Shown here piece by piece: positions 3,049 through 18,450 of a DNA stretch of 44,842 nt (the first letter of the stretch is position 1; the number at the start of each line of letters is the position of its first letter). Under the pieces are notes generated by a model. The model saw only the letters and a list, made by a program, of their open reading frames with translations, did not search any database and was not told the DNA's origin. A program made the position numbers and the translations under genes. This stretch comes from Anaerolineae bacterium (GTDB lineage: Bacteria; Chloroflexota; Anaerolineae; Anaerolineales; UBA4823): the NCBI GenBank assembly GCA_041481345.1, contig JBGPBQ010000003.1:1-44842 (forward strand). The letters run 5' to 3'.

Positions 3049-3675
3049 GTGGAATTCGATACCATGGTCTCTGCTGTTGATCGCCGCGAACACACCCGTA
3101 CCGCTATCCTGCAGGCCGCCCATGACCTGTTCATCAGACAGGGTTACCATGGCACCTCCATGCGCCAGATTGCCCAGGCTGCCCATATTGCCCTTGGCGG
3201 GCTCTACAACCATTTCCCCAGCAAAGAGAAGGTCTTTGAGGCGGTATTCTTGACTTTTCATCCCTACCATGAGGTTCTACCGATGATTGCCGCTGCAAAA
3301 GGGAATAACCTCAAACAGCTGGTGCAGGATGCCATCCGGCGTATGGAACAGGTCGTCGAAGGGCGTCCAGATTTCATGAACCTGATGTTCATCGAGCTGG
3401 TCGAGTTTAAAAGCGCGCATGCCAGGCAGCTTTTTACCTACCTCTTTCCTCAGGGTATGCAGCTCATGCAGCAGTTGGTTGAATCATATCCCGAGCAGAT
3501 GCGTTCCATCCCAGCCCCTATGGTGGTGCGCACATTCTTGGGCCTGTTTTTTGGGTACTACCTCACCGAAACCGCCCTCGCCCCAGCCGCCCCGCCTGAA
3601 TTTCGCCAGGACGCCATGCAGTATTTTGTGGATATTTATCTCCATGGGATCCTGGCTGTGGAAACCCCCAGTTAA
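3049..3675 (+). CDS. TetR/AcrR family transcriptional regulator
   Basis: ILQAAHDLFIRQGYHGTSMRQIA...GLYNHFPSKEKVF HTH. Confidence 0.95.
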   Translation: MEFDTMVSAVDRREHTRTAILQAAHDLFIRQGYHGTSMRQIAQAAHIALGGLYNHFPSKEKVFEAVFLTFHPYHEVLPMIAAAKGNNLKQLVQDAIRRMEQVVEGRPDFMNLMFIELVEFKSAHARQLFTYLFPQGMQLMQQLVESYPEQMRSIPAPMVVRTFLGLFFGYYLTETALAPAAPPEFRQDAMQYFVDIYLHGILAVETPS

Positions 3676-3705
3676 GTATCTTATTGCACCTTTATAGGAA
3701 GTGCC

Positions 3706-4839
3706 ATGTTCAACACCCGTCTTCGTTCGCTCATCCGCAAAGAATTCATCCAGATCCGGCGTGACAAGCGCACCCTCATCCTGGTGCTGATCATCCCCAT
3801 CATGCAGTTGTTCCTGCTGGGTTACGCCGCCACCAACGATGTGCGCAATGTGCCCCTGGCAGTCTATGACCAGGACCATGGTACAGAGGCTCGGGCTCTT
3901 CTGGATGCCTACCGCGCAGCCGATTACTTTACCCTATCCTATGAGGCTAGCTCTGAGCAGGAGCTGCGCGATTTGGTCGATACGGGTCAGGCACGTGCCG
4001 GTCTGATCATCCCCCCCGACTATACCGATAAGATCCAGGGAGGGCAAACGGGGCAGGTGATGTTTATCCTGGACGGTTCCGATCCCACCGTCGCCTCGAC
4101 TGCTCTTTCCGCGGCTAAGCTGATTGGTCAAGCCCACTCCACGCAGATCCTTGCCGCCCGGTTATTGGCCCGCGGTCAGGCTGCCGCCATCCAGGCGCCG
4201 GTCCAGGTGGGCACCAGCGTATGGTACAACCCTGACCTAGTCAGCGCTTACTTCATGATCCCGGGCGTCATTGGCATGATCCTGTTTGCCCTCACTTCGA
4301 TCCTGACCGCCACCGCCATTGTTCGCGAGCGTGAACGGGGTACAATCGAACAGCTGATTGTTACTCCTATTCGCCCGTGGGAGCTGATGGTGGGCAAGCT
4401 GCTGCCTTATGTCATCCTGGCCTTCCTGAATGCCTTGGAAGTCCTGGCAATCGGTCACTATTGGTTTGGAGTACCCATCCGCGGTAGCCTGCTGATAATG
4501 GCGGGCGCTTCCTTCTTATTCTTGCTCTCCAGCCTGGGAATCGGCTTGCTGGCTTCCACCATCGCCAACACCCAGCAGGAAGCCATGCTCACCGTTTGGA
4601 TGCTGCTGCTCCCCAGCATCTTCCTGGCGGGTTTCTTTTTTCCGCTGGAAGCAATGCCCAAAGTTTTGCAGTTGATATCATACATTTTTCCATTGCGTTA
4701 TTACCTGGTGATCATCCGTTCCTTGATGCTGAAAGGCGTCGGCATTTCAGCTTATACCGAGGATTTAATCGCCCTGGCAATCTTTGGGGTTGCCATTATG
4801 TCCCTGGCAGCTCTACGGTTTCGCAAGCGGCTCGACTAA
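3706..4839 (+). CDS. ABC-2 type exporter permease (YbhS/YbhR-like)
   Basis: KEFIQIRRD, WYNPDL, IVRERERGTIEQLIVTP; multiple TM. Confidence 0.93.
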   Translation: MFNTRLRSLIRKEFIQIRRDKRTLILVLIIPIMQLFLLGYAATNDVRNVPLAVYDQDHGTEARALLDAYRAADYFTLSYEASSEQELRDLVDTGQARAGLIIPPDYTDKIQGGQTGQVMFILDGSDPTVASTALSAAKLIGQAHSTQILAARLLARGQAAAIQAPVQVGTSVWYNPDLVSAYFMIPGVIGMILFALTSILTATAIVRERERGTIEQLIVTPIRPWELMVGKLLPYVILAFLNALEVLAIGHYWFGVPIRGSLLIMAGASFLFLLSSLGIGLLASTIANTQQEAMLTVWMLLLPSIFLAGFFFPLEAMPKVLQLISYIFPLRYYLVIIRSLMLKGVGISAYTEDLIALAIFGVAIMSLAALRFRKRLD

Positions 4840-4863
4840 TGTTTTGAAATTCAGGAGGTAATT

Positions 4864-6243
4864 ATGAAGGTTGGAAGAATCATACTCGCTATCCTTTTGA
4901 TTGCAGCAGTCATTGTGGTTGCCTACTGGTATGTGACCACTCACAATACATCGACCGCCTCCACCGCTCTCACCGGGTCTGGTACGGTAGAAACCACCCA
5001 GGTCGCCATATCTCCCGAGGTGAGTGGGAAAGTCGTGGACGTACTGGTCAACGAAGGCGATGAAGTTAAAGCTGGGGCTATTTTATTCACGCTCGATGAC
5101 ACTTTGCTAACTGCTCAGAAGGAACAAGCCCAAACCAACCTGGCGGCCGCTCAGGCCGGGTTGGATGCCGCCAATACGGCTCTCGCAGCTGCCCAGGCCG
5201 GCGTTACGACCGCTCAAACCCAATATGACCTGACGCGCGCTTCCTCTCGCCTGCAGGCTCAGCCTGCCCGTCTCACCGCCTGGAGCCAGCCGGCACCTTC
5301 CGAGTTCAACCAGCCCAACTGGTATTTCAGCCATACGGAAGAAATTACTGCTGCTCAACAAGAGGTCCGTGCTGCCAGCGCTGCTCTGGATACCGCTAAA
5401 ACAGACTTCTCATCCCTGATTTCGAGTGGCACCTATACGAATCTCACCAGCACCGAATCCCGTCTGGCAAAGGCGCAAGCCGCCTTCTTGGATGCCAGGG
5501 CTGTGCTCGATCGTGCTCAAACCCAGAATAACCGCAGCCTGCGCGATGTGGCTCAACAGGAGTACGATGCCACCAAGGCTGAGCTGGATGCTGCCCAGCA
5601 AGCCTATAATGAGCTCCTTACCAACCAGGAAGCTACCGATGTGCTGGACGCAAGGGCTCACCTGGCTGCTGCCCAGGACCGCTACGATACTGCTGTCGAC
5701 CGGTATAATTCCCTCCTGACAGGAGAAAATTCTCTCACCGTGAAGGTCACCGCTGATACAATAGCTCAGGCTCAAGCCAATGTCACTGCTGCCGGCTCGA
5801 AAGTTACCCAGGCGCAAAAAGCCATCGATCAAGCTCAAGCTGCGCTCAATCTGATCGATGTACAGCTGGAAAAACTGGTCATCACCTCACCCAACGATGG
5901 TGTGATCCTGACGCGTAATATCGAGCCGGGTGAAGTCGTGGTAGCCGGAGCTACTGCCCTGACCGTCGGGCAGCCGAATGACCTCACCATAACTGTCTAC
6001 ATTCCAGAAAATCGCTACGGCGAGGTGAAATTGGGCGATCAAGCTGTTGTCAGCGTGGATTCCTTCCCCAACCAAACCTTTGACGCCAAAGTCACCCGGA
6101 TTGCAGACCAGGCTGAATTTACGCCTCGCAACGTGCAGACGGCTGAGGGACGACAGACCACCGTCTATGCAGTTCACCTCGCTGTTCAAAACCCTGGCGG
6201 TCTTCTCAAACCGGGCATGCCCGCCGATGTTACTTTCAAGTAA
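4864..6243 (+). CDS. HlyD/YbhG-like membrane fusion (adaptor) protein
   Basis: N-terminal TM, lipoyl half motifs, long Ala/Gln coiled coil, AEFTPRNVQT, LKPGMPAD. Confidence 0.92.
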   Translation: MKVGRIILAILLIAAVIVVAYWYVTTHNTSTASTALTGSGTVETTQVAISPEVSGKVVDVLVNEGDEVKAGAILFTLDDTLLTAQKEQAQTNLAAAQAGLDAANTALAAAQAGVTTAQTQYDLTRASSRLQAQPARLTAWSQPAPSEFNQPNWYFSHTEEITAAQQEVRAASAALDTAKTDFSSLISSGTYTNLTSTESRLAKAQAAFLDARAVLDRAQTQNNRSLRDVAQQEYDATKAELDAAQQAYNELLTNQEATDVLDARAHLAAAQDRYDTAVDRYNSLLTGENSLTVKVTADTIAQAQANVTAAGSKVTQAQKAIDQAQAALNLIDVQLEKLVITSPNDGVILTRNIEPGEVVVAGATALTVGQPNDLTITVYIPENRYGEVKLGDQAVVSVDSFPNQTFDAKVTRIADQAEFTPRNVQTAEGRQTTVYAVHLAVQNPGGLLKPGMPADVTFK

Positions 6244-6275
6244 TCCTTGAAATTTCGGGATTTAGGTTATCATCT

Positions 6276-7250
6276 ATGCCTAACATCCTTCTATCTCACC
6301 TGTCAAAGTCATTCGGTACAACTGTTGCCGTCAATGACGTCAGCATTCAGGTCGATCCGGGCGAGATATACGGGTTGATCGGTCCCGATGGAGCGGGTAA
6401 GACCACCACCATGCGCTTGCTATGTGGAGCCCTGCTGCCTGACCTGGGGAAAAGCACGGCTGAAACGGTCGTCCAAATAGCGGGGCTGGACATACTGACA
6501 CAAACCGACACTGCCCGGGCGCAGCTAGGTTACCTGCCGCAGCGCTTCTCGATGTATGAGGAGCTGACCGTGCTCGAGAATCTGCGTTTCTTCGCCGAAG
6601 TGCGGGGTCTCTCAGAATCTACCTGGCGGCCGCGCTGTATGCAAATCCTTGAGTTTGTCGGTTTGGCTGAGTTTATTAACCGCAGCGCCGGGCAGCTTTC
6701 TGGCGGCATGCGCCAGAAGCTGGGTCTGGCGGTTGCCCTGGTGCACTCACCTAAGGTGCTGCTGCTGGACGAGCCCACCACCGGGGTCGACCCCGTCACC
6801 CGACAGGATTTCTGGCAGCTCATCATCCGCCTGGTCGCCGAAGAAGGCGTGGCGGTTTTGGTCAGCACTCCATATATGGATGAGGCTGGGCGGTGTGCCC
6901 GAGTGGGTTTTATGCGCCAGGGGAAAATCATGCTCGAAGGCAAACCGGATGAGCTGCGCGCTAGGCTAAATGGTCGCATCATTGAAGTGCACGGGCAGCC
7001 GCTCCAGCTGCTGCGTGACATGGCGCGCAAGGATGTTAATGTGGAGGATGCGCAGATGTTTGGTGACCGCTTGCACCTGCGTGTTCATCCTGGGTCGTAC
7101 CAGCAGGTGATCGAACATCTGCAGGTAGAAATCCCAGCCCAGGGAGGCAAGCTTACACAGATGCGCTCCATCACACCTCAGCTCGAGGATGTTTTCATCG
7201 ATCTATTGGAAGGTCAATCAGACCAGTTTCCTATGCAAGAGGGTAGTTAA
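6276..7250 (+). CDS. ABC transporter ATP-binding protein (YbhF N-half-like)
   Basis: GPDGAGKTT, LSGGM, LLLDEPT; STPY at the H-loop. Confidence 0.95.
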   Translation: MPNILLSHLSKSFGTTVAVNDVSIQVDPGEIYGLIGPDGAGKTTTMRLLCGALLPDLGKSTAETVVQIAGLDILTQTDTARAQLGYLPQRFSMYEELTVLENLRFFAEVRGLSESTWRPRCMQILEFVGLAEFINRSAGQLSGGMRQKLGLAVALVHSPKVLLLDEPTTGVDPVTRQDFWQLIIRLVAEEGVAVLVSTPYMDEAGRCARVGFMRQGKIMLEGKPDELRARLNGRIIEVHGQPLQLLRDMARKDVNVEDAQMFGDRLHLRVHPGSYQQVIEHLQVEIPAQGGKLTQMRSITPQLEDVFIDLLEGQSDQFPMQEGS

Positions 7251-7253
7251 TCC

Positions 7254-8192
7254 ATGCCTCAAGAAGTGATCCTTGCCCACAACCTCACCAAACGCTTCGA
7301 TAGCTTCACCGCGGTCGACCATATCTCCTTCAGCGTTAATGCAGGCGAAGTAGTGGGCTACCTGGGACCCAACGGCTCGGGGAAAACCACCACCATCCGC
7401 ATGCTGTTGGGTTTATTACTCCCAAGCGAGGGTGAAGCATCCGTCCTGGGATATGACGTTGTGCGCCAATCCGAGCGCGTGCGTGAACGGGTGGGCTACA
7501 TGTCTCAGAAGTTCGCTCTGTATCACGACCTGACGGTGGGGGAAAACCTGGCTTTTTACGCTGGTGTCTATGGTGTAAGAGATCAGCAGCGCCTGTCGGA
7601 AGTGTTGGATTTAATCGGTTTACGCTCGCTGCAAGCAGTGCGGGTCAGTGATCTTTCCACTGGCTGGAAGCAGCGCCTGGCATTGGCCACTGCCATCGTT
7701 CACCAGCCGCGTTTGTTGTTCCTGGACGAACCCACCAGTGGGGTAGACCCCACTGCCCGGCGTGCCTTTTGGGATTTGATCTACACTTTGGTCGCCCAGG
7801 GTGTGACTGCTCTCGTGACCACTCATTACATGGACGAAGCTGAATATTGCGGTAAGGTGGGGATCATGCGCGACGGCAGGCTTTTAGCGATGGACAGCCC
7901 ATCCGCCCTCAAGCAGCACGCTTTGCCCGACCTCGCCTGGGATGTGTTTGCTGAACCCCTTCTGCCTGCCCTGGTCGCCCTGGAACATTGCACCTGTGTG
8001 ATCCGGGCAGGGCTCACAGCTGACCATCTACGCGCCATTACTCCCACCGATGCCGATGCTGATACCCTGGTCAAGACCTTAGGGGATGCAGGCATCCGGG
8101 TGGAACGCATCGAGCGCGCCGAACCCACCCTTGAAGATGTATTCCTGGCGCTAGCCCAGGTCAACGTTATGCGTTCTACCGGCAATTCGTGA
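7254..8192 (+). CDS. ABC transporter ATP-binding protein (YbhF C-half-like)
   Basis: GPNGSGKTT, LSTGWKQR, LFLDEPT, TTHY. Confidence 0.95.
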   Translation: MPQEVILAHNLTKRFDSFTAVDHISFSVNAGEVVGYLGPNGSGKTTTIRMLLGLLLPSEGEASVLGYDVVRQSERVRERVGYMSQKFALYHDLTVGENLAFYAGVYGVRDQQRLSEVLDLIGLRSLQAVRVSDLSTGWKQRLALATAIVHQPRLLFLDEPTSGVDPTARRAFWDLIYTLVAQGVTALVTTHYMDEAEYCGKVGIMRDGRLLAMDSPSALKQHALPDLAWDVFAEPLLPALVALEHCTCVIRAGLTADHLRAITPTDADADTLVKTLGDAGIRVERIERAEPTLEDVFLALAQVNVMRSTGNS

Positions 8193-8283
8193 ATCAGAGT
8201 ATAAAATTCTATCCAAGAACACAAAATAATTGAATATAATCTAAATAAAATCAATATTTATATCGAAATTATTCAATATATCA

Positions 8284-8311
8284 TTGACAAATATCAAATA
8301 TTGTGTATAAT
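8284..8311 (+). promoter_or_regulatory. Consensus sigma70 promoter of DUF2089 operon
   Basis: TTGACA (8284-8289), 16 nt, TATAAT (8306-8311), with AT-rich upstream DNA. Confidence 0.8.
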
Positions 8312-8355
8312 ATTGTTCAGAAACAAGCAGCGCAACGACGCCAAAGGAGGCTGTT

Positions 8356-8592
8356 ATGTTTGAACAGAGAATTGTTGAATTGATGAAATTGGATAATCGG
8401 AACGCCTGCGATGAGTTTGATCAGGTTCAATCGAATATGAGACCAGTCCATTTCAAGCCATCTTTGATGGACCGGGTCTTGCCCACCCTCGGAGAAGCGA
8501 TGATCAGCGTTGGGCTCAAACTTAAAAACCGTCCTCACATGAAGCTGAACACTGAACAGGCAAATTCACCCAATTACATGATTATGCTGTGA
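8356..8592 (+). CDS. Small hypothetical protein (78 aa)
   Basis: RBS AAGGAGG directly after the promoter; amphipathic LGEAMISVGLKLK segment. Confidence 0.65.
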   Translation: MFEQRIVELMKLDNRNACDEFDQVQSNMRPVHFKPSLMDRVLPTLGEAMISVGLKLKNRPHMKLNTEQANSPNYMIML

Positions 8593-8654: not shown

Positions 8655-9041
8655 ATGAACACCTTACCCACCCGATGCCCGCTCTGCGGTGGCGAAGTTA
8701 CCGTCACACGGATATACTGCCAGGATTGTGATACGACCATAGAGGGTCGCTTCACTGGTGGTCCATTCTCCCAGCTCACCCAGGATCAGCTCTCTTTCGT
8801 CGAAACCTTTATCCGCTGTGAAGGGAAGATCACCCGCATGGAAGTCGAGCTTGATCTGTCCTACCCGACCATCCGCAACCGGCTACATGAAGTCATCCGG
8901 GCGCTGGGTTATGAACCGGGTGGCGAAGAGCCGATCACAGGTCTGAGTGATACAGAGCGACAACGCATCCTGGAAGATCTAGACCAGGGTGTGATCAGTG
9001 CAGAGGAAGCCATGCGCTTGTTGCAGGAAAGCGAGAAGTGA
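8655..9041 (+). CDS. DUF2089 family protein (Zn ribbon + HTH + SHOCT-like tail)
   Basis: CPLCGG..C..C.T.IEGRF, SYPTIRNRL, RILEDLDQGVISAEEAMRLL; RBS GGAGGTG. Confidence 0.9.
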   Translation: MNTLPTRCPLCGGEVTVTRIYCQDCDTTIEGRFTGGPFSQLTQDQLSFVETFIRCEGKITRMEVELDLSYPTIRNRLHEVIRALGYEPGGEEPITGLSDTERQRILEDLDQGVISAEEAMRLLQESEK

Positions 9042-10318
9042 GTATGGATAAACAGTTTGCAAGCACCAGTGCCTCTCCCCATGTCGTGTTGGATGTCAGT
9101 GGAGACCTGCGGCTTAAAGGGCAGGATGACTTTGAGGTGGTGGCAAAATCAGATTCTCCCGAGGATCTCGCCTTAGAAGCCCGCGATGATCAGGTCGCGA
9201 TCCGCTGCACAAGCAACTGTAGCGTGCGCGTTCCACGTGCAGCGGTCGTAGAAATTCACTCAGCCCATGGAGAAGCGGTTATCAAAGCCCTGGACGGGAG
9301 TTTATCGATTGAAACAGTCGATGGAGATTTGGAACTGCGCAGTGTATGTGTAACGAGTATTGGCAAGGTGAATGGGAATCTGACTGCCAAGAATGTGGAC
9401 GGTGATCTCAGCATTGAATCAATTGCTGGTGATGTTTTTGTGCGCAGTGTCCAGGGGAATTTCACCGTTGCCAAGTCGATTAATGGCAACCTTAACCTCA
9501 CAGATGTAGGTGGGAGTGCCAAAGCCTCAGCCAATGGTAATATCCTTCTCCGTCTCGATCCTGCTCCCGGGCATGATTATGAATTTGACTGTACCGGCAA
9601 CCTGTTTTGCCGCTTATCTTCAGACGCCAGTGTAGAGATCAGTGTGCCGAAGGCCTCTCAGGTGATGGTTGATCTGCCTGGGATTCATGCCTCAGCCCCA
9701 GTGCAAACACCCTATGCCCTCACCCTTGGTGAAGGCGACGCAAAGATCACCCTGTCTGCGAAAGGCAACGTTGTCCTGGATACCCATGCTCCCGAGTGGG
9801 ACATGGAAGATTATGACATTAACATCGGTGCTGAAGTGGAAGGGATGGCCGACGCAGTCAGCCAACAGATAAATCAGCAGGTTGAATCTCAGGTGCGCAT
9901 GATCGAAGACCAGCTGAATGCCCAGCTTTCCAGCCTTACCATGCGTTTGAGCGCCGCAAAACTGACCGAAGACCAGGCACGCAGGATTGAAGACCGAGCG
10001 CGTGAAGCTAGTGAACGGGCCACTCAACGGGCGCAGGAACGTGTGCATCGAGCGCAGGAGAGAATGGAACAAAGGATGGCGGCTGCTCAGCGAAAAATGG
10101 AGTATAAAGCTCAGGCAATGGAACGTGCTTCACGCCATGGGCGTCATCCGGTAGGGATGGGAATCTTCACTGTTCCTGGCTCCCCGAAGCCACCAACCCC
10201 ATCCGGTGAACCGGTTAACGAAGAGGAACGCTTGATGATCCTGCGCATGCTCGAACAGAAGAAAATTACCATGGAAGAGGCGGAGAACCTGCTTACAGCA
10301 TTGGAAGATCAGGCTTAG
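9038..10318 (+). CDS. DUF4097-like beta-repeat + coiled coil + C-terminal SHOCT-like protein
   Basis: Repeated V.GDL/V.GNL strands, RAQER coiled coil, EERLMILRMLEQKKITMEEAENLL; GTGA overlap with the upstream stop. Confidence 0.85.
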   Translation: MSMDKQFASTSASPHVVLDVSGDLRLKGQDDFEVVAKSDSPEDLALEARDDQVAIRCTSNCSVRVPRAAVVEIHSAHGEAVIKALDGSLSIETVDGDLELRSVCVTSIGKVNGNLTAKNVDGDLSIESIAGDVFVRSVQGNFTVAKSINGNLNLTDVGGSAKASANGNILLRLDPAPGHDYEFDCTGNLFCRLSSDASVEISVPKASQVMVDLPGIHASAPVQTPYALTLGEGDAKITLSAKGNVVLDTHAPEWDMEDYDINIGAEVEGMADAVSQQINQQVESQVRMIEDQLNAQLSSLTMRLSAAKLTEDQARRIEDRAREASERATQRAQERVHRAQERMEQRMAAAQRKMEYKAQAMERASRHGRHPVGMGIFTVPGSPKPPTPSGEPVNEEERLMILRMLEQKKITMEEAENLLTALEDQA

Positions 10319-10382
10319 AAGGTTACATAATCCCAGATCGAACTGTCCTCCCATATCCCGTGGTGAAAGGTGAAGGTAAAGT

Positions 10383-11057
10383 ATGACCAACGAAACAGAA
10401 CGTCTGCAAATCCTCGAAATGATCGAAAAAGGTGTCATCAGTGCTGCCGAGGGCGTCAGGCTGCTCAATTCCCTCCAGGGAGAGCCTGAAGAGGTCGAAA
10501 CACGGCTGTTTAGCCCCACCATCCCGACCGCAGCAGGACCTTCTCCGGAACCTGAAGTTACTGTAGAAGAACCCGCACCTGAAGCCAGGCCTTCGCCCGT
10601 ACCGTCTGAATTTGACGCTAAGACCAGGAAGTGGCGCCGCTGGTGGTGGATTCCTTTAACTATCGGTGTAAGCATTACTGTGATCAGTGGTCTGCTAATG
10701 TTCCTGGCATACCAGAGTAGTGGATTCGGGTTTTGGTTTGCTTGTTTATGGTTCCCGTTGCTGTTCGGTGTGGTCATTATGAGCCTTGCAGCTGCCAGCC
10801 GAACCACGCGTTGGTTGCATGTCAGGGTTCACCAGGAGCCTGGCGAATGGCCCCGGACCATCGCCATCAGCCTACCGATTCCCCTCCGTTTTACCGCCTG
10901 GCTATTGCGCATTTTTAAGCCTTATATTCACAATATGGAAAATACCAGCCTGGATGAAATTATCCTTGCCTTGGAAAAAACTTCTCCTGACCAGCCATTC
11001 TACGTGAACGTAGACGAGGGCGAATCAGGTGAAAAAGTCGAAGTTTATATCGGATAA
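10383..11057 (+). CDS. SHOCT-like domain membrane protein (2 TM)
   Basis: ERLQILEMIEKGVISAAEGVRLL, Pro/Glu linker, two TM helices, C-domain similar to the next gene. Confidence 0.85.
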   Translation: MTNETERLQILEMIEKGVISAAEGVRLLNSLQGEPEEVETRLFSPTIPTAAGPSPEPEVTVEEPAPEARPSPVPSEFDAKTRKWRRWWWIPLTIGVSITVISGLLMFLAYQSSGFGFWFACLWFPLLFGVVIMSLAAASRTTRWLHVRVHQEPGEWPRTIAISLPIPLRFTAWLLRIFKPYIHNMENTSLDEIILALEKTSPDQPFYVNVDEGESGEKVEVYIG

Positions 11058-11125
11058 AAGCTATCATAGGATGTAGAGCTGATCCCAATCTCATCTCTCG
11101 TGCCAGAATTTATGTGGAGGTCTTT

Positions 11126-11500
11126 ATGGCAACAACAGAAGAAAGAATGCGAATTTTACGAATGATCCAGGAAGGCAAGATTACTGCTGATGAAGGTGCC
11201 AAGCTGCTTGCAGCCTTGCGTGAGAGTCGTAAGGAAGCTCGCCCGGTTGTCACAACCAGCCGTCCCGGAAAAGGTATGCTGCGTGTGCGTGTCACAGATA
11301 TGTTAACTGGCAAAGCCAAGGTCAATGTCAACCTGCCCCTGGGGCTGGTGGATGCGGGGATGAGTATTGCCAGCCAGTATGCTCCGGATATAAATTTTGG
11401 TCAAATCGCGGACGCGATACGATCCGGGCAGATGGAAGGAAAGATCGTGGATGTGGTGGATGAGGAAGACGGAGAGCATATTGAAGTTTTCATCGATTAA
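11126..11500 (+). CDS. SHOCT-like domain soluble protein (YvlB/LiaX N-terminal-like)
   Basis: EERMRILRMIQEGKITADEGAKLL; LRVRV...VNLPL...GEHIEVFID; ATG 11126 after GGAGG. Confidence 0.88.
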   Translation: MATTEERMRILRMIQEGKITADEGAKLLAALRESRKEARPVVTTSRPGKGMLRVRVTDMLTGKAKVNVNLPLGLVDAGMSIASQYAPDINFGQIADAIRSGQMEGKIVDVVDEEDGEHIEVFID

Positions 11501-11544
11501 TCGCATGCCAATGCCCTGCAGTCGGAAAATTTATGGAGGTTATT

Positions 11545-12555
11545 ATGTCTGATGAAATCATTGAACAAAGATATGAAGTAGCTGCACCAGCCCGTTTGAT
11601 CATCTCCAACGTCCGTGGTTCAGTCACCATCCAGCCGGGCGAGGCCGGTGTGATTGAGGTCAAGGCCGTCAAGCATGGTAATTTTGACAACGGCCAGAAT
11701 GCGGTCGAGATGACCCAGGATTCAGATGGGACCGTGCGGGTTGAAACCCGCTCCAATGACGCCTTTTTTGGTTTCCTGTCACACCCGCCCAGGGTGGACT
11801 ATTCTGTGCGTGTCCCTCAGGGTATCCATCTTGAGGCTTCCTGTGTCAGCAGTACCATCGACGTGAGTGAGCTGGAAGGTGTGTTTAAGTTAAAGACCAT
11901 CAGTGGTAGTGTTACCCTGGCTAAGCTGTCCGGTCCATTGAAGCTTGGTGCGGTGAGTGGGAATATCAGCGGCACACAGCTCGTTGGTGTGATTGATTTG
12001 AATACGGTTTCAGGTAGGGTACACCTGACAGAGTCCAACTTTCCTTCAGCAGATGCCTCCACGGTCAGCGGTGATTTGCTCCTTCAAACCCCAGTCGCAG
12101 ATGGACCGTATCGGTTCAGCTCGGTTTCAGGTTCGGTGCACATGATTGTGCCTGCAGATACGCGCTGTAATGTAGAGCTAAACAGTGTCAGCGGCAGCAT
12201 CCGCTCCTCTCTGCCAGCCGCAGTCACCAAAATGGGTCATGGGTTAAAAGTGACCCAGATCCAGGGTGGCGGTACCGCGGTTCGTCTCAAGAGCGTCTCG
12301 GGTGGAGTATCGATCGAGACGGAAGGCACTACCGCCACCGCGGTCCAAACGACTGCGCCTGCTAACGTAGCTCCTATTCCCCCGGTTCCACCTATTCCCC
12401 CGGTTCCACCTGTTCCTTCTGTTCCTCCGGTTCCTTCAACTGAGATCCCTTCCACCCCTCCGGAACAGCTCACCACATCTGAAATCCTGCAGCGCATCGA
12501 GAGAGGTGAGATGACGGTCGACGAGGCGATCAAACTGATGAAGGATAAATCCTGA
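11545..12555 (+). CDS. DUF4097 beta-strand repeat protein with C-terminal SHOCT-like tail
   Basis: Many (T/S)VSG repeats, Pro-rich linker, EILQRIERGEMTVDEAIKLM; ATG 11545 after GGAGG. Confidence 0.88.
   Translation: MSDEIIEQRYEVAAPARLIISNVRGSVTIQPGEAGVIEVKAVKHGNFDNGQNAVEMTQDSDGTVRVETRSNDAFFGFLSHPPRVDYSVRVPQGIHLEASCVSSTIDVSELEGVFKLKTISGSVTLAKLSGPLKLGAVSGNISGTQLVGVIDLNTVSGRVHLTESNFPSADASTVSGDLLLQTPVADGPYRFSSVSGSVHMIVPADTRCNVELNSVSGSIRSSLPAAVTKMGHGLKVTQIQGGGTAVRLKSVSGGVSIETEGTTATAVQTTAPANVAPIPPVPPIPPVPPVPSVPPVPSTEIPSTPPEQLTTSEILQRIERGEMTVDEAIKLMKDKS
12373..12435 (+). repeat. Coding tandem repeat (PIPPVP) linker
   Basis: CCTATTCCCCCGGTTCCA x2 followed by degenerate 9-bp units. Confidence 0.8.
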
Positions 12556-12576: not shown

Positions 12577-12613
12577 AAGACGACCCGTGGAGATCTTCCG
12601 CGGGCGTTTTTTT
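12577..12613 (+). terminator. Intrinsic terminator closing the DUF2089 operon
   Basis: CCCGTGGA/TCCGCGGG stem with a T run. Confidence 0.85.
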
Positions 12614-12633: not shown

Positions 12634-14043
12634 ATGATGAACCTACCCCGCACTCCCACAAAGCCAGAAGATTCAAAACTTCCGACCGGAATGTTTGGCT
12701 TTACCATCGTCTGGTTTGGTCAGATCATTTCGCTGCTGGGCACCAGCATGACCGGGTTCGCCATGACCATCTGGGCGTATCAAAAGACCAATGCTGCCAC
12801 CGCCCTAACCCTGATTGGTTTCTTCTTCGTTGCACCGATGCTCATCGCTTCCCCATTCGCCGGGGCCTTGGTCGATCGCTCCAATCGCAAGCTGATGATG
12901 ATGGTCTCTGATATAGCCTCCGGCATCGCCAGCTTCATCATTCTTATCCTCTTTACCACCGGGCATCTGCAGATATGGCACCTGTTTATCACCAGCGCCT
13001 TCCAGGGAGTGTTCCAATCCTTCCAATGGCCGGCTTATTCTGCTGCTATTTCCACCATGATTCCCAAGCAGCATTATGGGCGGGCGAACGGCATGCTCAC
13101 GCTGGCCGATTCGGCCTCGAACATTTTTGCCCCCATCCTGGCCGGATCTCTGTTGGGGATTATCGGTGTGCCGGGCATTTTATTAATCGACCTGGGTACA
13201 TTTATTTTTGCCATCGGTGCTTTGCTGCTGGTACATATCCCTCAGCCCAGGGTCACCGAAGAAGGGCGCCAGGCACGTGGAAACATTCTCGAGGAAGCCG
13301 TTTTCGGCTTTCGCTACATATGGAGCCGTCCTCCATTGCTCGCCCTGCAAATCGTCTTTCTCACCGGTAATTTCTTCGTGGGTATCCCGGCTGCGGTCGA
13401 GGCCGCCATGATCCTTGCCAATACCGGCAGCAACGAAAAAGCGCTTGCCTATGTAAATTCGGCTGCGGCAATTGGGGGCGTGGTGGGTGGTCTGGTAATG
13501 AGCGCCTGGGGTGGTCCCAAACGCCGCGTGCATGGGGTTCTCTTTGGCTGGTTCATCGCCAGCCTTCTTGGTAGTGTCCTGATGGGATTCAGCCGGAGTA
13601 TCCTCTTCTGGGCGATTTCCGGATTTTTGGGAATGTTCTTCATCCCTATCATTAACGGCTCCAACCAGGCGATCTGGCAGGCAAAGGTCCCCCCAGACTT
13701 GCAGGGGCGCGTTTTTTCCATTCGCCGGCTGATTGCCTGGTTTGTCAGCCCACTGGCATTGCTTATTGCCGGACCCCTGTCTGATAAGCTGCTGGAGCCT
13801 GCCATGCGCGATCCAGAAAGCTTCCTGGCTTCTACTGTTGGTTCGATCATCGGCATAGGCCCCGGGCGCGGTATGGCGCTCCTTTTTATCATCGGCGGCG
13901 GGATTGCTGCCCTGATTGGGATCAGCGGGTATGTCTTCCGCGTCCTTAGGGATGCCGACACGCTCCTGCCCGACCATGACACTCTCCCCTCTTCTGTTCC
14001 TCCGGACGAAAAATTTACGAGCATGCAGGAGCTGCCTGAGTAG
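12634..14043 (+). CDS. MFS transporter (DHA3/macrolide-efflux-like)
   Basis: GQIISLLG, AGALVDRSNRK, QAKVPPDLQGRVFS; about 12 TM. Confidence 0.93.
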   Translation: MMNLPRTPTKPEDSKLPTGMFGFTIVWFGQIISLLGTSMTGFAMTIWAYQKTNAATALTLIGFFFVAPMLIASPFAGALVDRSNRKLMMMVSDIASGIASFIILILFTTGHLQIWHLFITSAFQGVFQSFQWPAYSAAISTMIPKQHYGRANGMLTLADSASNIFAPILAGSLLGIIGVPGILLIDLGTFIFAIGALLLVHIPQPRVTEEGRQARGNILEEAVFGFRYIWSRPPLLALQIVFLTGNFFVGIPAAVEAAMILANTGSNEKALAYVNSAAAIGGVVGGLVMSAWGGPKRRVHGVLFGWFIASLLGSVLMGFSRSILFWAISGFLGMFFIPIINGSNQAIWQAKVPPDLQGRVFSIRRLIAWFVSPLALLIAGPLSDKLLEPAMRDPESFLASTVGSIIGIGPGRGMALLFIIGGGIAALIGISGYVFRVLRDADTLLPDHDTLPSSVPPDEKFTSMQELPE

Positions 14044-14180: not shown

Positions 14181-14744
14181 CTATTGGGTGGTAGGTGAGG
14201 AAAATTTCCGCTCCAATACGATTGCCGCCATGGTATCGTCGGCTAAGACCGTGTCTCCTTCGTAGTGGACGATCGTCCGCCAGCCCATATCGATCCAGAA
14301 CCGAAGCGCCGGCCAATTTTTCAGGCATACTCGCAGCCAAATTGCCTCATATTCACCTAGCTGCCTGAATTGGTCCCATAATCCATATGCCAGCTCAGAT
14401 CCATAATGGTTCTTCTGGAAATGCGGATGGACCACAAACATCGATATCCACACCCGGTGTGGCATCGGTGCATCATGGAACAGGTGAAAATATCCGATGA
14501 TATCCGCTCCACCGCGCAGAAAAACGCTTTGCATTTTGAAAATATCTTTTGCTGTGTGATTTAATCCCAGGCTTTTCGAAACCAATTTGATAAAGGCTTC
14601 CTCAGTTTCTTCATAAAACGTATTGTCCCACTCAGCCACGTACGAACACGCATTGAACACATTCCGTAAATGGGGAACATCCTCCATGGTGGCATCCCTC
14701 ACCATCAATCGGTCCGTTCCCCAGCTTTCCGGTAAAATTTTCAT
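14181..14744 (-). CDS. GNAT family N-acetyltransferase
   Basis: FVVHPHFQKNHYGS motif A variant, NWPALRFW..MGW. Confidence 0.85.
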   Translation of the reverse strand: MKILPESWGTDRLMVRDATMEDVPHLRNVFNACSYVAEWDNTFYEETEEAFIKLVSKSLGLNHTAKDIFKMQSVFLRGGADIIGYFHLFHDAPMPHRVWISMFVVHPHFQKNHYGSELAYGLWDQFRQLGEYEAIWLRVCLKNWPALRFWIDMGWRTIVHYEGDTVLADDTMAAIVLERKFSSPTTQ

Positions 14745-14943: not shown

Positions 14944-17900
14944 ATGAGAAGAATCCGCATCGTGCTCCCGATTCTGGTCCTTTTTTTTATTTTCATGCTG
15001 GGTATTTTGCTCACCAACCCTTCTAAGGCGCAAGTTGGTCCCATCTGGCTCCCATTTGATGGCAAATCAGCCCCTTCTGAGCCAGCTCTGACCCTGCTCA
15101 ATGCCAGCCCGACCGAGATTCAATTACATGCCTCCCTCCCTGGTGCGTATGCTGATTCTGTGACAGCCGAAGGGTATCCATACACCCGTCTGACGGCTCC
15201 TGGGTATGGTTTTCCTGCCTCTTATGGTCTGCCTGAGCTGCCTGTTCTGCGCCGTGAAGTGGAGATCCCGTTTGGTGCCCAGCTATCCATCGAGGTCATC
15301 TCAGCCCAATTCACTGATAATTCACTGGGAAGCCTTGGTCTCAACCCCATATACCCCTTGCAGCTGCCGGTCCCTAAAGCGGCTGGGGTTGAAGATAACC
15401 AACCCTTCACCATCGATGCAAAATACTATGCCAATGGAGGGCGCTATCCTTCCAACGTGATTTCGATCGGTGAGCCCTATATCGTCCGTGGTCACCGCAT
15501 CGTGATGGTCGAGGTCTGGCCGGTCGCCTATGATCCCTCCCAGGCGAGCCTGCGCCTGTATTCCCAGGTGACCTTTCAGCTTGACCTCAGCGGCTCGGAC
15601 ATGTCAGCCACCAACCGCCTGGCACAGCGCTATTCATCGCCGGTCTTCGATCCCTCCCTCTCTAACCGGGTGATCAATTTCAACCAGGGTCTCCCGCTCG
15701 CCGTGAATGGGCAGGTTGGCTACTTGATCATCACCGCCGATGCCTATGCAGGAGCCCTTCAGCCCCTGGTCGATCTGCGCTCCAACCGTGGCTTCGCTGT
15801 CACTCTGACGAAACTCTCCGCAATACCATATGGCAGCACAGCTCAAGGCATTAAATCCTATATCCAGACCGCCTATGACACCTGGCCTATCCCGCCATCC
15901 TATGTCCTGCTGGTGGGTGATACCGATACCATGCCCGCCTGGAGTAGCCCTGTTATCAGTACTTTTACCGACCTGTATTACGCCACCATGGATGGGGACT
16001 CTGACTGGCATCCAGATATCGGCCGCGGACGCTTCCCGGTGCGCTCCGTCGAGCAGACCACTGCCATGGTGGATAAATATATTTTTTATGCCGGTCTCAC
16101 CGGGCAGGAACCCTGGCTGAAAACCGCCTCCTTCCCGGCTTCCTGTGATGGTAGTAATTATGGTGTAGCCGAAGGCAGTCATAATTATGTCATCGGTAAT
16201 TACACTGCTCCAGGTGGCTGGACCGGGACCTTCCCCCAAAACCCAAATCCGGGGGGCGACCAGCTGTACTGTATCTCCAATAGTGCCACCCACCAGGATC
16301 TGGTTGATCAATTCAACCAGGGGCGCTGGGCGATCATCTATTCGGGGCACGGATACCAGGGAGGTTGGGAAATGGATTATACCCAGACTGATATCCAGAA
16401 TATGCCTGCCAATACGATGTACCCGTTCGTAGCCTCCCACGCCTGCCTCACCGGCGATTTTGGATTTACCGGCCAGGATGAAGTCTTTGGAGAGACCTGG
16501 GTGCTGCAGGCGAACAAAGGCGCTATGATCTATTGGGGCTCAGCCACTTACAGCTATTGGGGTGAGGATGACGTCTTGGAACGTAGCATGTTTGATGGTC
16601 TGTTTACCAACACCTCCCCGCATGCCGACGTCACCGCCATGACCTACACAGGTCTCGCCGGGGTCGAGGCTGCCTTTCCTTCCAGCGCCCAGTACTACTG
16701 GGAAACCTATAACATCCTCGGAGATCCATCCGTCCATCTGTTCATGGAACCCGACCAGCCTGCCTTCTCCTTAAACCTTGATCCGGCCCACCAGGAAGTC
16801 TGTGTGGAAGGCACGGTTACCTCCACCGCCGAAATCGGTAGCATTTTGGGCTACTCTTCCACCGTCTACCTTGAATCTGGGGACCTGCCATTCAATGTCG
16901 CTGCCAGCTTTGACCCGGCCCAAGCTCCTGCGCCTTATACCTCCACACTCACGCTGGATGTCTCCGCAGGCGCACCAGAGGGCGACCATACCATCATCAT
17001 CACCGCCACCGACCACGTAAGCCAGACTTTATACACCTCCCTCGACCTGCGGATCAATACCACTCTCCCCGGCGCACCCTGGTTGCTCAGCCCTGAAGAT
17101 GGCGCTACCAACCAACCATCTACCCCTACTTTTGATTGGTCTGATCTACCCTTGGTGGACAGTTATAACTTTGAGCTGGCGACCAGCCCGCTGTTTGAAA
17201 CTCCGATCATCACTGCCAGCCATCTGCTCAGCTCTGGTTTTATTCAGCCAGAACCTTTGGAGGGTGGCACGTGCTACTGGTGGCACGCCCAGGCGGATAA
17301 TGCCTGCGGCACCAGTCTCTGGTCCGATCCATTCCACTTCAGAACCATTGATCTCGGTGTGTTGTTCTCAGACGATCTGGAATCCGGTGCAGGTCAGTGG
17401 TCCCATGCCGCAAATCCGGGCATCGACCATTGGGTGGTTTCCACCGACCAATCCCATAGCTCCACCCACGCCTGGTTCGTGCCAGACGATGAAGTTGTCA
17501 CAGACACCAGCCTATGGACGACCGAGACTATCCAGCTGAGTGATAGTAGCCTGCTCACCTTCTGGCACCGCTACCAGTTCGAAGATCCCGATTATGATGG
17601 TGCGGTGTTGGAGATATCCACTGATGCGGGCAACACTTGGTCTGACCTGGGACCTCATATCACTGCCAATGGCTACACTGGAGTCATTAACTCCGGCTAC
17701 AGCAACCCCCTGGGAGGCCGGCAGGGTTGGACGGGTGATCTGCTTGACTGGACGCAAGTGACGGTTGACCTGAGCACTTTCGCCGGGCAGGATGTGATGA
17801 TCCGCTGGCGCCTGGGGAGCGATTCCTCGGTTAGCGATGTTGGCTGGTATATCGATGATGTCGAAATTACGGCTCCACTTCCACCCGGCCCGCCACCGAC

Positions 17901-18450
17901 GCTTGTTTCCATATCCCCCGACTCAGCCAGTCATGACATGCAAACAGTCGTTGTGATCACAGGCACTAATTTCATCGGCTCACCCGCCCTCAAGCTGGGT
18001 GACACCTGGCTGGGACTATCGTATGTGATGGACCCCGAAAGGATCCTTGCCGTTGTACCAGCGGGCCTCCCCTTGGGAACATATGATTTGACCATTTACA
18101 ATGGTGATTGCCAATCGGATACGCTCGAGGGTGCCTTTACCGTGCTTGAGGGAGATGATCCTATCACAGGGTTGAGGGCGGCGAATGATAGCCCGACCGT
18201 GCTTGGCAGTCTTACCACGTTCACTGCTACGGTAGATACTGGCACGAATGTCCTCTACACCTGGGATTTCGGCGATGGAACCAGTGCAGACGGTCAGATG
18301 GTGACGCATGTATATTCTGAAGTTGGCGCTTACACTGCGAAAGTGTTTGCACACAACTTCAACAACGCTGCCTCCACAACCACCGAAGTAACCATCATCG
18401 TCCCGCCGCAAGTATTCCACTTAATTTACCTGCCGGTAACCTTTAAATAA
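14944..18450 (+). CDS. Secreted gingipain-like cysteine peptidase (family C25) with propeptide, Ig/FN3-like, beta-sandwich, IPT/TIG and PKD domains
   Basis: Signal peptide; G.PELP propeptide; YVLLVGD, D.YY, IGRGRFP, YSGHG (His), HAC.TGDF (Cys), YNILGDP; YTWDFGDG PKD; ends IYLPVTFK. Confidence 0.92.
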   Translation: MRRIRIVLPILVLFFIFMLGILLTNPSKAQVGPIWLPFDGKSAPSEPALTLLNASPTEIQLHASLPGAYADSVTAEGYPYTRLTAPGYGFPASYGLPELPVLRREVEIPFGAQLSIEVISAQFTDNSLGSLGLNPIYPLQLPVPKAAGVEDNQPFTIDAKYYANGGRYPSNVISIGEPYIVRGHRIVMVEVWPVAYDPSQASLRLYSQVTFQLDLSGSDMSATNRLAQRYSSPVFDPSLSNRVINFNQGLPLAVNGQVGYLIITADAYAGALQPLVDLRSNRGFAVTLTKLSAIPYGSTAQGIKSYIQTAYDTWPIPPSYVLLVGDTDTMPAWSSPVISTFTDLYYATMDGDSDWHPDIGRGRFPVRSVEQTTAMVDKYIFYAGLTGQEPWLKTASFPASCDGSNYGVAEGSHNYVIGNYTAPGGWTGTFPQNPNPGGDQLYCISNSATHQDLVDQFNQGRWAIIYSGHGYQGGWEMDYTQTDIQNMPANTMYPFVASHACLTGDFGFTGQDEVFGETWVLQANKGAMIYWGSATYSYWGEDDVLERSMFDGLFTNTSPHADVTAMTYTGLAGVEAAFPSSAQYYWETYNILGDPSVHLFMEPDQPAFSLNLDPAHQEVCVEGTVTSTAEIGSILGYSSTVYLESGDLPFNVAASFDPAQAPAPYTSTLTLDVSAGAPEGDHTIIITATDHVSQTLYTSLDLRINTTLPGAPWLLSPEDGATNQPSTPTFDWSDLPLVDSYNFELATSPLFETPIITASHLLSSGFIQPEPLEGGTCYWWHAQADNACGTSLWSDPFHFRTIDLGVLFSDDLESGAGQWSHAANPGIDHWVVSTDQSHSSTHAWFVPDDEVVTDTSLWTTETIQLSDSSLLTFWHRYQFEDPDYDGAVLEISTDAGNTWSDLGPHITANGYTGVINSGYSNPLGGRQGWTGDLLDWTQVTVDLSTFAGQDVMIRWRLGSDSSVSDVGWYIDDVEITAPLPPGPPPTLVSISPDSASHDMQTVVVITGTNFIGSPALKLGDTWLGLSYVMDPERILAVVPAGLPLGTYDLTIYNGDCQSDTLEGAFTVLEGDDPITGLRAANDSPTVLGSLTTFTATVDTGTNVLYTWDFGDGTSADGQMVTHVYSEVGAYTAKVFAHNFNNAASTTTEVTIIVPPQVFHLIYLPVTFK

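Follow-up and report, generated by a model that had tools for sequence, protein, structure and literature searches.

The window analysed here, a 44,842-nucleotide (nt) stretch of contig JBGPBQ010000003.1 from an uncultured Anaerolineae bacterium (phylum Chloroflexota; assembly GCA_041481345.1, 3.9 Mb and 85% complete), contains an operon of six co-directional genes on the plus strand, g0 through g5, with a gene for a major facilitator superfamily (MFS) transporter next to it. Five of the six products share one short helical hairpin of the Pfam family PF22746, and the first of these five, g1, is a regulator of the DUF2089 type. Both the domain and a regulator/partner pair of this kind are already in print (PMC11237479), and the operon is a real, well-delimited and conserved form of that catalogued module, expanded, hairpin-tagged and linked to a pump. 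We suspect, with a probability that we put at about 0.45, that the hairpin is a handle for protein-protein pairing through which this kinase-free operon controls its regulator and the neighbouring efflux pump. An initial annotation of the DNA had described five genes with a common motif; these five open reading frames (ORFs) exist as described, and to them we add the small gene g0, a domain common to g3 and g4 (the X domain), and the link to efflux. The genes of the operon are laid out as follows, in positions of the window:

8356..8592, plus strand: g0, a 78-amino-acid (aa) protein with no hairpin and no Pfam match, recognised by its ribosome-binding site, orthologues and coding signature
8655..9041, plus strand: g1, DUF2089 regulator; Zn ribbon 8-38, helix-turn-helix (HTH) 41-87, flexible linker, C-terminal hairpin (DNA 8955-9038)
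9038..10318, plus strand: g2; Toastrack-like beta-helix ~28-233, long helical region ~260-365, Pro-rich linker, C-terminal hairpin (DNA 10223-10309)
10383..11057, plus strand: g3; N-terminal hairpin (DNA 10398-10490), Pro-rich linker, two transmembrane (TM) helices, C-terminal X domain
11126..11500, plus strand: g4, a soluble g3 paralogue; hairpin helices 4-16 and 21-36 (DNA 11138-11233), linker 37-50, X domain 51-123
11533..12555, plus strand: g5, Toastrack (DUF4097) protein; Toastrack 24-261, Pro-rich linker with PPVPP repeats, C-terminal hairpin (DNA 12478-12543)

The identity of the motif is carried by the PF22746 model (SHOCT-like_DUF2089-C, 32 positions, gathering cut-off 27 bits), which matches g1 at residues 101-127 (28.2 bits), g2 at 396-424 (29.6 bits), g3 at 6-36 (33.0 bits) and g4 at 9-40 in the numbering of the listed ORF (47.7 bits). 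The g5 match, at residues 316-337, falls under the cut-off at 18.9 bits, and its orthologues retain the motif. All five hairpins align nearly gap-free, with a 3-residue gap in helix 1 needed by g5 only, and the initial view that one motif recurs in the five proteins is borne out. A six-frame search of the genome found PF22746 at exactly these five sites and nowhere else, a restriction to five adjacent genes that is far beyond chance. The classical SHOCT family, PF09851, did not match any of the five proteins at E <= 1. As first described, g1, g2 and g5 have the hairpin at the C-terminus and g3 and g4 have it at the N-terminus, so that it is attached by flexible linkers to either terminus of four unrelated domain types; Pro had been noted in four of the linkers and is present in the translations of all five. 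In the AlphaFold2 models of g1 (pLDDT 78.9) and g4 (pLDDT 84.3) the hairpin is formed by confident helices and the linker (84-98 in g1, 37-50 in g4) is low-confidence, with a pTM of about 0.5, which points to a module that moves independently of the rest of the protein.

The five hairpins are related but not alike. Conserved hydrophobic stripes (ILxxL / LL) run along them, and each of the five classes is net acidic, with means from -1.2 to -4.1. For helix 1 the charge is negative in g1 (-1.4) and g3 (-1.0) and positive in g4 (+0.4). Hairpin column 12 is D or E in 80% of g1 sequences, M in 89-97% of g2, g3 and g4, and R in g5; column 11 is E or D in g1 and K or R in g4 and g2. Over 80 related loci, orthologous hairpins are 0.56-0.77 identical, versus 0.32-0.53 among the hairpins of one operon. 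By these comparisons every protein class conserves its own version of the hairpin, and the differing charges suggest selective pairs instead of one interchangeable plug. The "universal" docking module of the initial annotation is thus too strong a description.

g1 matches PF22747, PF09862 and PF22746 in that order (50.2, 72.9 and 28.2 bits, each over its cut-off), which is the DUF2089 regulator architecture of Zn ribbon, DUF2089-HTH and SHOCT-like domain, and the four Cys of its ribbon are invariant in 21 orthologues. Its HTH can be superposed to about 2 A, over some 50 residues, on the DNA-binding domains of LuxR/GerE/NarL-type proteins (DosR, VpsT, LiaR, RcsB) and on region 4 of ECF sigma factors; the Foldseek E values of 0.3-1.3 are non-significant for so small a domain, and the likeness agrees with the classification of Ravi et al. 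(PMC11237479). PDB sequence searches with g1 and with the g4 profile returned nothing meaningful.

The start of g2 overlaps the stop of g1 (GTGA). g2 and g5 had both been called DUF4097-type proteins, which holds outright for g5 (74.0 bits over positions 6-246 of the 247-position model PF13349, cut-off 22.9); g2 scores 18.0 bits, below the cut-off, yet BLASTP shows its homology to g5 (E 5e-7, 213 columns). We considered and rejected an anti-phage defence system: PADLOC gave weak coiled-coil matches (E >= 6.5e-4) in the helical region of g2 and none for the other proteins. In g3, the TM helices start at about residues 88 and 113 by hydropathy and basic residues flank the pair, so that the prediction is of two cytoplasmic ends. 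The X domain that g3 and g4 have in common (hhalign probability 98.7%, E 4.7e-16, 78 columns) marks them as paralogues, and the AlphaFold2 model of g4 gives this domain two strands, two helices and two strands. It has no Pfam model, all 94 of 94 family members matching PF22746 alone, and a search for a structural relative gave none that was clear. Two g4 relatives (P0123 and P0126) have two tandem SHOCT-like hairpins ahead of the X domain, which might form an intramolecular four-helix bundle. The g4 product most likely starts at ATG 11126 and has 124 aa, because GGAGG lies 6 nt upstream and orthologues begin there; the listed GTG at 11114 falls inside the GGAGG site. None of the operon proteins has a signal peptide, and Pfam finds neither a kinase nor a sigma factor in the operon, as had been noted.

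Conservation and minimal form

The genes are strongly co-conserved in 80 Chloroflexota loci and in a set of loci mapped gene by gene. DUF2089 is present in 37 of 41 relatives (own genome included) and over the family cut-off in 36. Control genomes match DUF2089 as well. We mapped 20 loci from DUF2089-bearing relatives gene by gene, and 30 in all with ten loci that were re-examined. All seven same-genus loci have g0 through g5 and the MFS gene. Ten further loci, from other genera or families of the order, keep g1-g2-g3-g4 with a hairpin on each; two of them end at a contig edge after g3, and one (L012) has a 57-aa hairpin ORF in the g3 position. The 20 also include a bare g1+g4 pair (L014) and a solo second g1, which is the only regulator among the 30 loci with no adjacent hairpin-bearing partner.

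The other 80 loci, all from Chloroflexota and partly overlapping the mapped genomes, contain genes like g1, g2, g3, g4 and g5 in 80, 77, 71, 71 and 31 cases, respectively, and a five-sequence profile detects the hairpin in 78, 72, 70, 71 and 19 of them; on inspection, the missing hairpins are mostly divergent copies or truncated ORFs. The genus has g5, as do some other lineages. More broadly, of 121 Chloroflexota genomes that were sampled, 84 have PF22746, with between 1 and 5 copies each, as a rule side by side. The ten re-examined loci came from this sample (eight from genomes in which a single copy had shown up, one from a two-copy genome, L104, and one a second locus of genome G039), and nine of them have at least two adjacent hairpin genes; in L106 the hairpin is on the partner only. 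Five (L101-L105) are g1+g4 pairs with both members tagged. From the gene content of these loci we conclude that the core g1-g2-g3-g4 is conserved across Chloroflexota, and that the minimal form is the regulator g1 with the soluble partner g4, a form seen in L014, L068, L073 and L101-L105. The g4 family comprises 471 clusters at 50% identity (E <= 1e-10).

In genome G039, g1+g4 lie at one locus (L014) and g2+g3 about 370 kb away (L110); to judge from this arrangement, the four-gene core can evidently work split into these two halves. Individual genes are also broken in places. In a same-genus locus (L003:2443-3421, minus strand) g5 is split into two ORFs of 120 and 196 aa, and in a same-family locus (L006:3078-3903, plus strand) the g3 sequence falls into two ORFs, one of 74 aa with the hairpin and one of 144 aa with the TM helices and X domain; both may be frameshifts, assembly errors or real splits.

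Control elements and the link to efflux

The operon is preceded by a promoter and a candidate operator and is followed by an MFS transporter gene, with further exporter genes directly upstream:

3049-8192, plus strand: exporter operon directly 5' of the hairpin operon
3049-3675, plus strand: TetR
3706-4839, plus strand: ABC-2 permease
4864-6243, plus strand: HlyD-type membrane-fusion protein
6276-7250 and 7254-8192, plus strand: two DrrA-like ABC ATPases
8251..8316, plus strand: candidate operator, from repeat analysis and sequence, putatively bound by g1
8251-8258 and 8272-8279: operator half-sites TCAATATT and TTCAATAT, 5' of the -35 box
8297-8304: operator half-site AATATTGT, within the promoter spacer
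8309-8316: operator half-site AATATTGT, overlapping the -10 box
8284..8311, plus strand: sigma-70-type promoter, TTGACA-16 nt-TATAAT
12584..12613, plus strand: terminator-like hairpin of 9 pairs (12584-12604), then a run of seven T
12634..14043, plus strand: MFS_1/MFS_3 transporter (Pfam)

The initial annotation gave the unit its own promoter and terminator. The promoter stands, with a 12/12 consensus match and both hexamers invariant or nearly so across 20 distinct orthologous upstream regions, and a terminator-like hairpin follows g5; a strict scan that covered the relatives only picked up a similar one in no more than 3 of the 35 related loci with an MFS gene behind. In relatives an MFS gene comes after g4 or g5 (35 of the 80 loci, and all seven of the same genus) and in four loci (L040, L048, L050, L054) it overlaps the g4 stop by 4 nt, so that g5 does not always end the unit.

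Between the promoter and g1 there are 345 nt. A riboswitch in the intervening stretch was considered and dropped: Rfam has no match anywhere in the window, and the stretch is the gene g0, which begins 45 nt after the promoter. g0 is a real gene. Its ribosome-binding site, AAAGGAGG, is strong, and its orthologues occur in all seven same-genus loci, with a conserved core LGxxLIxxGxxLK and, within the genus, a C-terminus ending in PN(Y/F)(L/M)IML. Single-base codon differences are synonymous versus non-synonymous in a ratio of 1715:1162 in frame, compared with 660:2302 and 253:2821 in the other frames. An iterated profile finds a g0-like small ORF immediately 5' of g1 in 34 of 78 related loci; 17 other clusters are annotated as hypothetical proteins, and g0 has no name in public data. 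ESM Atlas searches with g0 and the X domain returned only unnamed or PF22746-bearing clusters (scores 0.81-0.88), which serve as leads only. Because g0 lacks the hairpin and lies between the promoter and g1, the claim that every protein of the operon carries the motif does not hold.

Around the promoter, half-sites of the TCAATAT / ATATTG type bracket the hexamers, and the -35 box is flanked by the arms of an inverted repeat (8274-8284 / 8293-8303). The 8-mer AATATTGA/TCAATATT is more frequent than any other in the 88 nt ahead of the -35 box: in related loci it occurs 35 times, in 29 of 78 loci, versus 1.9 +/- 1.3 times in shuffles, an enrichment that is overstated since the region is rich in AT and a single genus contributes 14 of these 78 loci. 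Distant loci have the 8-mer too. HTH domains of the LuxR/GerE type usually bind inverted repeats as dimers. From the LuxR/GerE-like HTH of g1, the bracketing half-sites, the invariant promoter and the enriched 8-mer we infer that g1 autoregulates its own promoter through AATATTGA-type inverted half-sites.

Transporter genes recur in this neighbourhood. Given the arrangement of the MFS gene across loci, the transporter is likely to be the output that the system regulates. In three loci (L007, L012, L082) the operon itself contains a DrrA-like ABC ATPase together with one or more ABC-2 permeases, and a homologue of the DrrA-like ATPase stands ahead of g0 in same-genus loci. Other neighbours include a GNAT acetyltransferase gene (14181-14744, minus strand), convergent with the MFS gene; six same-genus loci have an equally long ORF at the corresponding place, and in L012, a GNAT gene lies inside the hairpin operon. 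Beyond it, a large secreted-type protein (14944-18450, plus strand) has a C25 (gingipain-like) peptidase with propeptide and MAM-like and PKD domains. In three loci from different genera (L004, L011, L013), a protein of about 390 aa encoded 5' of the operon has a weak, sub-cut-off match to M23 peptidases (E 9e-5 to 3e-4).

What the hairpin might do

The pairing mechanism that we consider would run as follows. g1 would bind the AATATTGA-type inverted half-sites around its own consensus promoter, and its acidic hairpin would pair with partner hairpins, the first candidate being the basic hairpin of g4 because g4 is the partner kept in the minimal two-gene form. g3 would act as a membrane-anchored paralogue of g4 whose acidic hairpin resembles that of the regulator, so that g4 could choose between g1 and membrane-bound g3, and the Toastrack proteins g2 and g5 may compete for the hairpins or scaffold them. 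X and Toastrack domains might sense membrane state or a ligand and so set the amount of free regulator, whose level would in turn determine promoter activity and hence how strongly the operon and the efflux pump downstream of it are expressed. The full exchange scheme, in which class-specific hairpins form selective, competing pairs, g4 shuttles between g3 and g1, Toastrack proteins compete or scaffold and X is the sensor, is a good deal more tentative than pairing as such. It may be likened to dominant-negative control of the HLH/Id type, which works by exchange of a shared dimerisation handle.

Several points weigh against hairpin pairing. The case for docking of one hairpin on another is built from indirect sequence arguments, and the argument from complementary charges uses consensus residues of related, non-independent sequences. 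One classical SHOCT domain, from a different Pfam family, did not oligomerise by size exclusion (PMC3581485). No fusion of DUF2089 to g4 was found in 15 longer relatives checked of 150 listed. A regulon search of the genome by palindrome and promoter patterns brought up no second site that convinced, the 8-mer enrichment is inflated as described above, and PspA/LiaH (PF04012) has no match in the genome, although at 85% completeness its absence is not proven. A complex prediction of g1 with g4, run without controls, scored 0.00 and counts neither way. In favour of pairing we count the behaviour of YvlB, a SHOCT-like plus Toastrack protein that was an interaction hub in bacterial two-hybrid assays (PMC9239133).

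Also against pairing, Ravi et al. 2024 predicted membrane anchoring for SHOCT-like domains (PMC11237479). According to this alternative, each hairpin would bind the inner leaflet on its own and thereby co-locate the regulator, Toastrack and X proteins, and a change in the membrane would free the regulator. The hydrophobic stripes of the hairpins, the membrane protein among the partners and the adjoining transporters all fit such a role. We nevertheless think it rather unlikely, and favour pairing over anchoring: the hairpins of all five classes are net acidic, which would be unfavourable for anionic bacterial membranes; g3 retains its hairpin despite having two TM helices; the minimal g1+g4 pair includes no membrane protein; and class-specific charge patterns are unexpected for a generic lipid anchor.

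It is less probable still that each hairpin serves its own protein, as a homo-oligomerisation element or stabilising cap (for example in dimerisation of the regulator), and that the operon reflects domain shuffling with no cross-talk. An HTH of the g1 type, like the LuxR/GerE-type domains that it resembles in structure, needs a dimer, class-specific conservation would suit separate roles, and interaction between different hairpins is so far only deduced. Such private roles sit poorly with the confinement of every PF22746 copy of the genome to one operon, with a regulator that nearly always lies beside a tagged partner, and with hairpins that, as would a portable handle, are joined by flexible linkers to either end of four unrelated kinds of domain.

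We consider it very improbable that the acidic hairpins detect cationic amphipathic compounds (antimicrobial peptides or lipopeptides) and that the operon then turns on efflux: LiaX's N-terminal domain does bind daptomycin and cationic LL-37 in a charge-dependent manner (PMC6936494), its first ~30 residues weakly match the hairpins (NCBIfam model positions 2-27 or 3-34), and the hairpins are acidic and adjacent to efflux pumps, but that domain is of ~290 residues, of which a hairpin is one tenth, LiaX scores are 13-19 bits against a cut-off of 350, and the operon proteins have no signal peptides, with both ends of g3 predicted to be cytoplasmic.

Pairing through hairpins is thus a plausible idea, now sharper than when first proposed, and an unproven one. 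If selective pairing is correct, it would amount to a widespread and compact form of signalling that uses no kinase or sigma factor and is apparently tied to efflux pumps; if the exchange of handles is also correct, it would provide a kinase-free relay of a membrane or ligand signal to a promoter. The analysis supplies a predicted operator, the charge positions expected to set partner choice and a minimal two-gene form for testing these ideas, and it brings out two uncharacterised components, the X domain and g0, for the latter of which we found no description.

Comparison with known systems

The operon had been proposed to serve in envelope stress, a role that is supported by analogy only. 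YvlB of Bacillus subtilis and LiaX of Enterococcus consist of a SHOCT-like N-terminus, a helical region and a Toastrack domain, and thus have the same two domain types as g2 and g5; the order is reversed in g2 and g5, with the Toastrack first and the hairpin last. YvlB and LiaX work with Psp/Lia components (PMC6936494, PMC9239133), and the C-terminal beta domain of LiaX inhibits LiaFSR (PMC6936494). Against the NCBIfam models, the best scores of the operon proteins are far below the cut-offs for both LiaX (NF038025, 18.6 bits versus 350) and LiaG (NF049997, 39.6 bits versus 285), and Pfam finds no PspC, LiaF, LiaRS or PspA/LiaH in the operon. The system may, by this analogy, work like a Lia-type module, yet it is not a member of one.

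Classical SHOCT domains (PF09851; Eberhardt et al. 2013, PMC3581485) are likewise short bihelical terminal modules fused to many unrelated domains, and belong to a Pfam family other than PF22746. A literature search turned up no experimental work on either DUF2089 regulators or PF22746.

The closest comparison is with the comparative genomics of Ravi et al. 2024, mSystems (PMC11237479), who defined the SHOCT-like domains, divided DUF2089 into a Zn ribbon, an HTH and a SHOCT-like part and tied it to Toastrack contexts. One four-gene context that they describe comprises a sigma factor, a zf-HC2 anti-sigma factor with HEAT repeats, a membrane-anchored Toastrack protein and DUF2089, and is predicted to relay membrane-proximal signals to transcription. 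It has DUF2089 and Toastrack in common with the present operon, in which the Toastrack proteins are soluble and hairpins replace the TM anchors; Pfam finds no sigma factor or zf-HC2 anti-sigma factor in g0-g5 or the flanking genes. Ravi et al. also list a "DUF2089 -> SHOCT-like+X" pair for Bacillus megaterium, and the X domain is present there only as an unnamed "X" in their Table S4. By listed architecture, as opposed to sequence, that pair has the same regulator architecture and the same type of partner (hairpin plus X, as in g4). g1 and g4 stand in this relation within one operon, with g2 and g3 between them, and are adjacent in the minimal loci. That paper does not take up the pairing of hairpins, their class-specific versions, g0 or an operator. 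To the catalogued pair, the operon described here adds a Toastrack-coiled-coil-hairpin protein, a paralogue of the partner with two TM helices, a second Toastrack protein, g0 and an MFS exporter.

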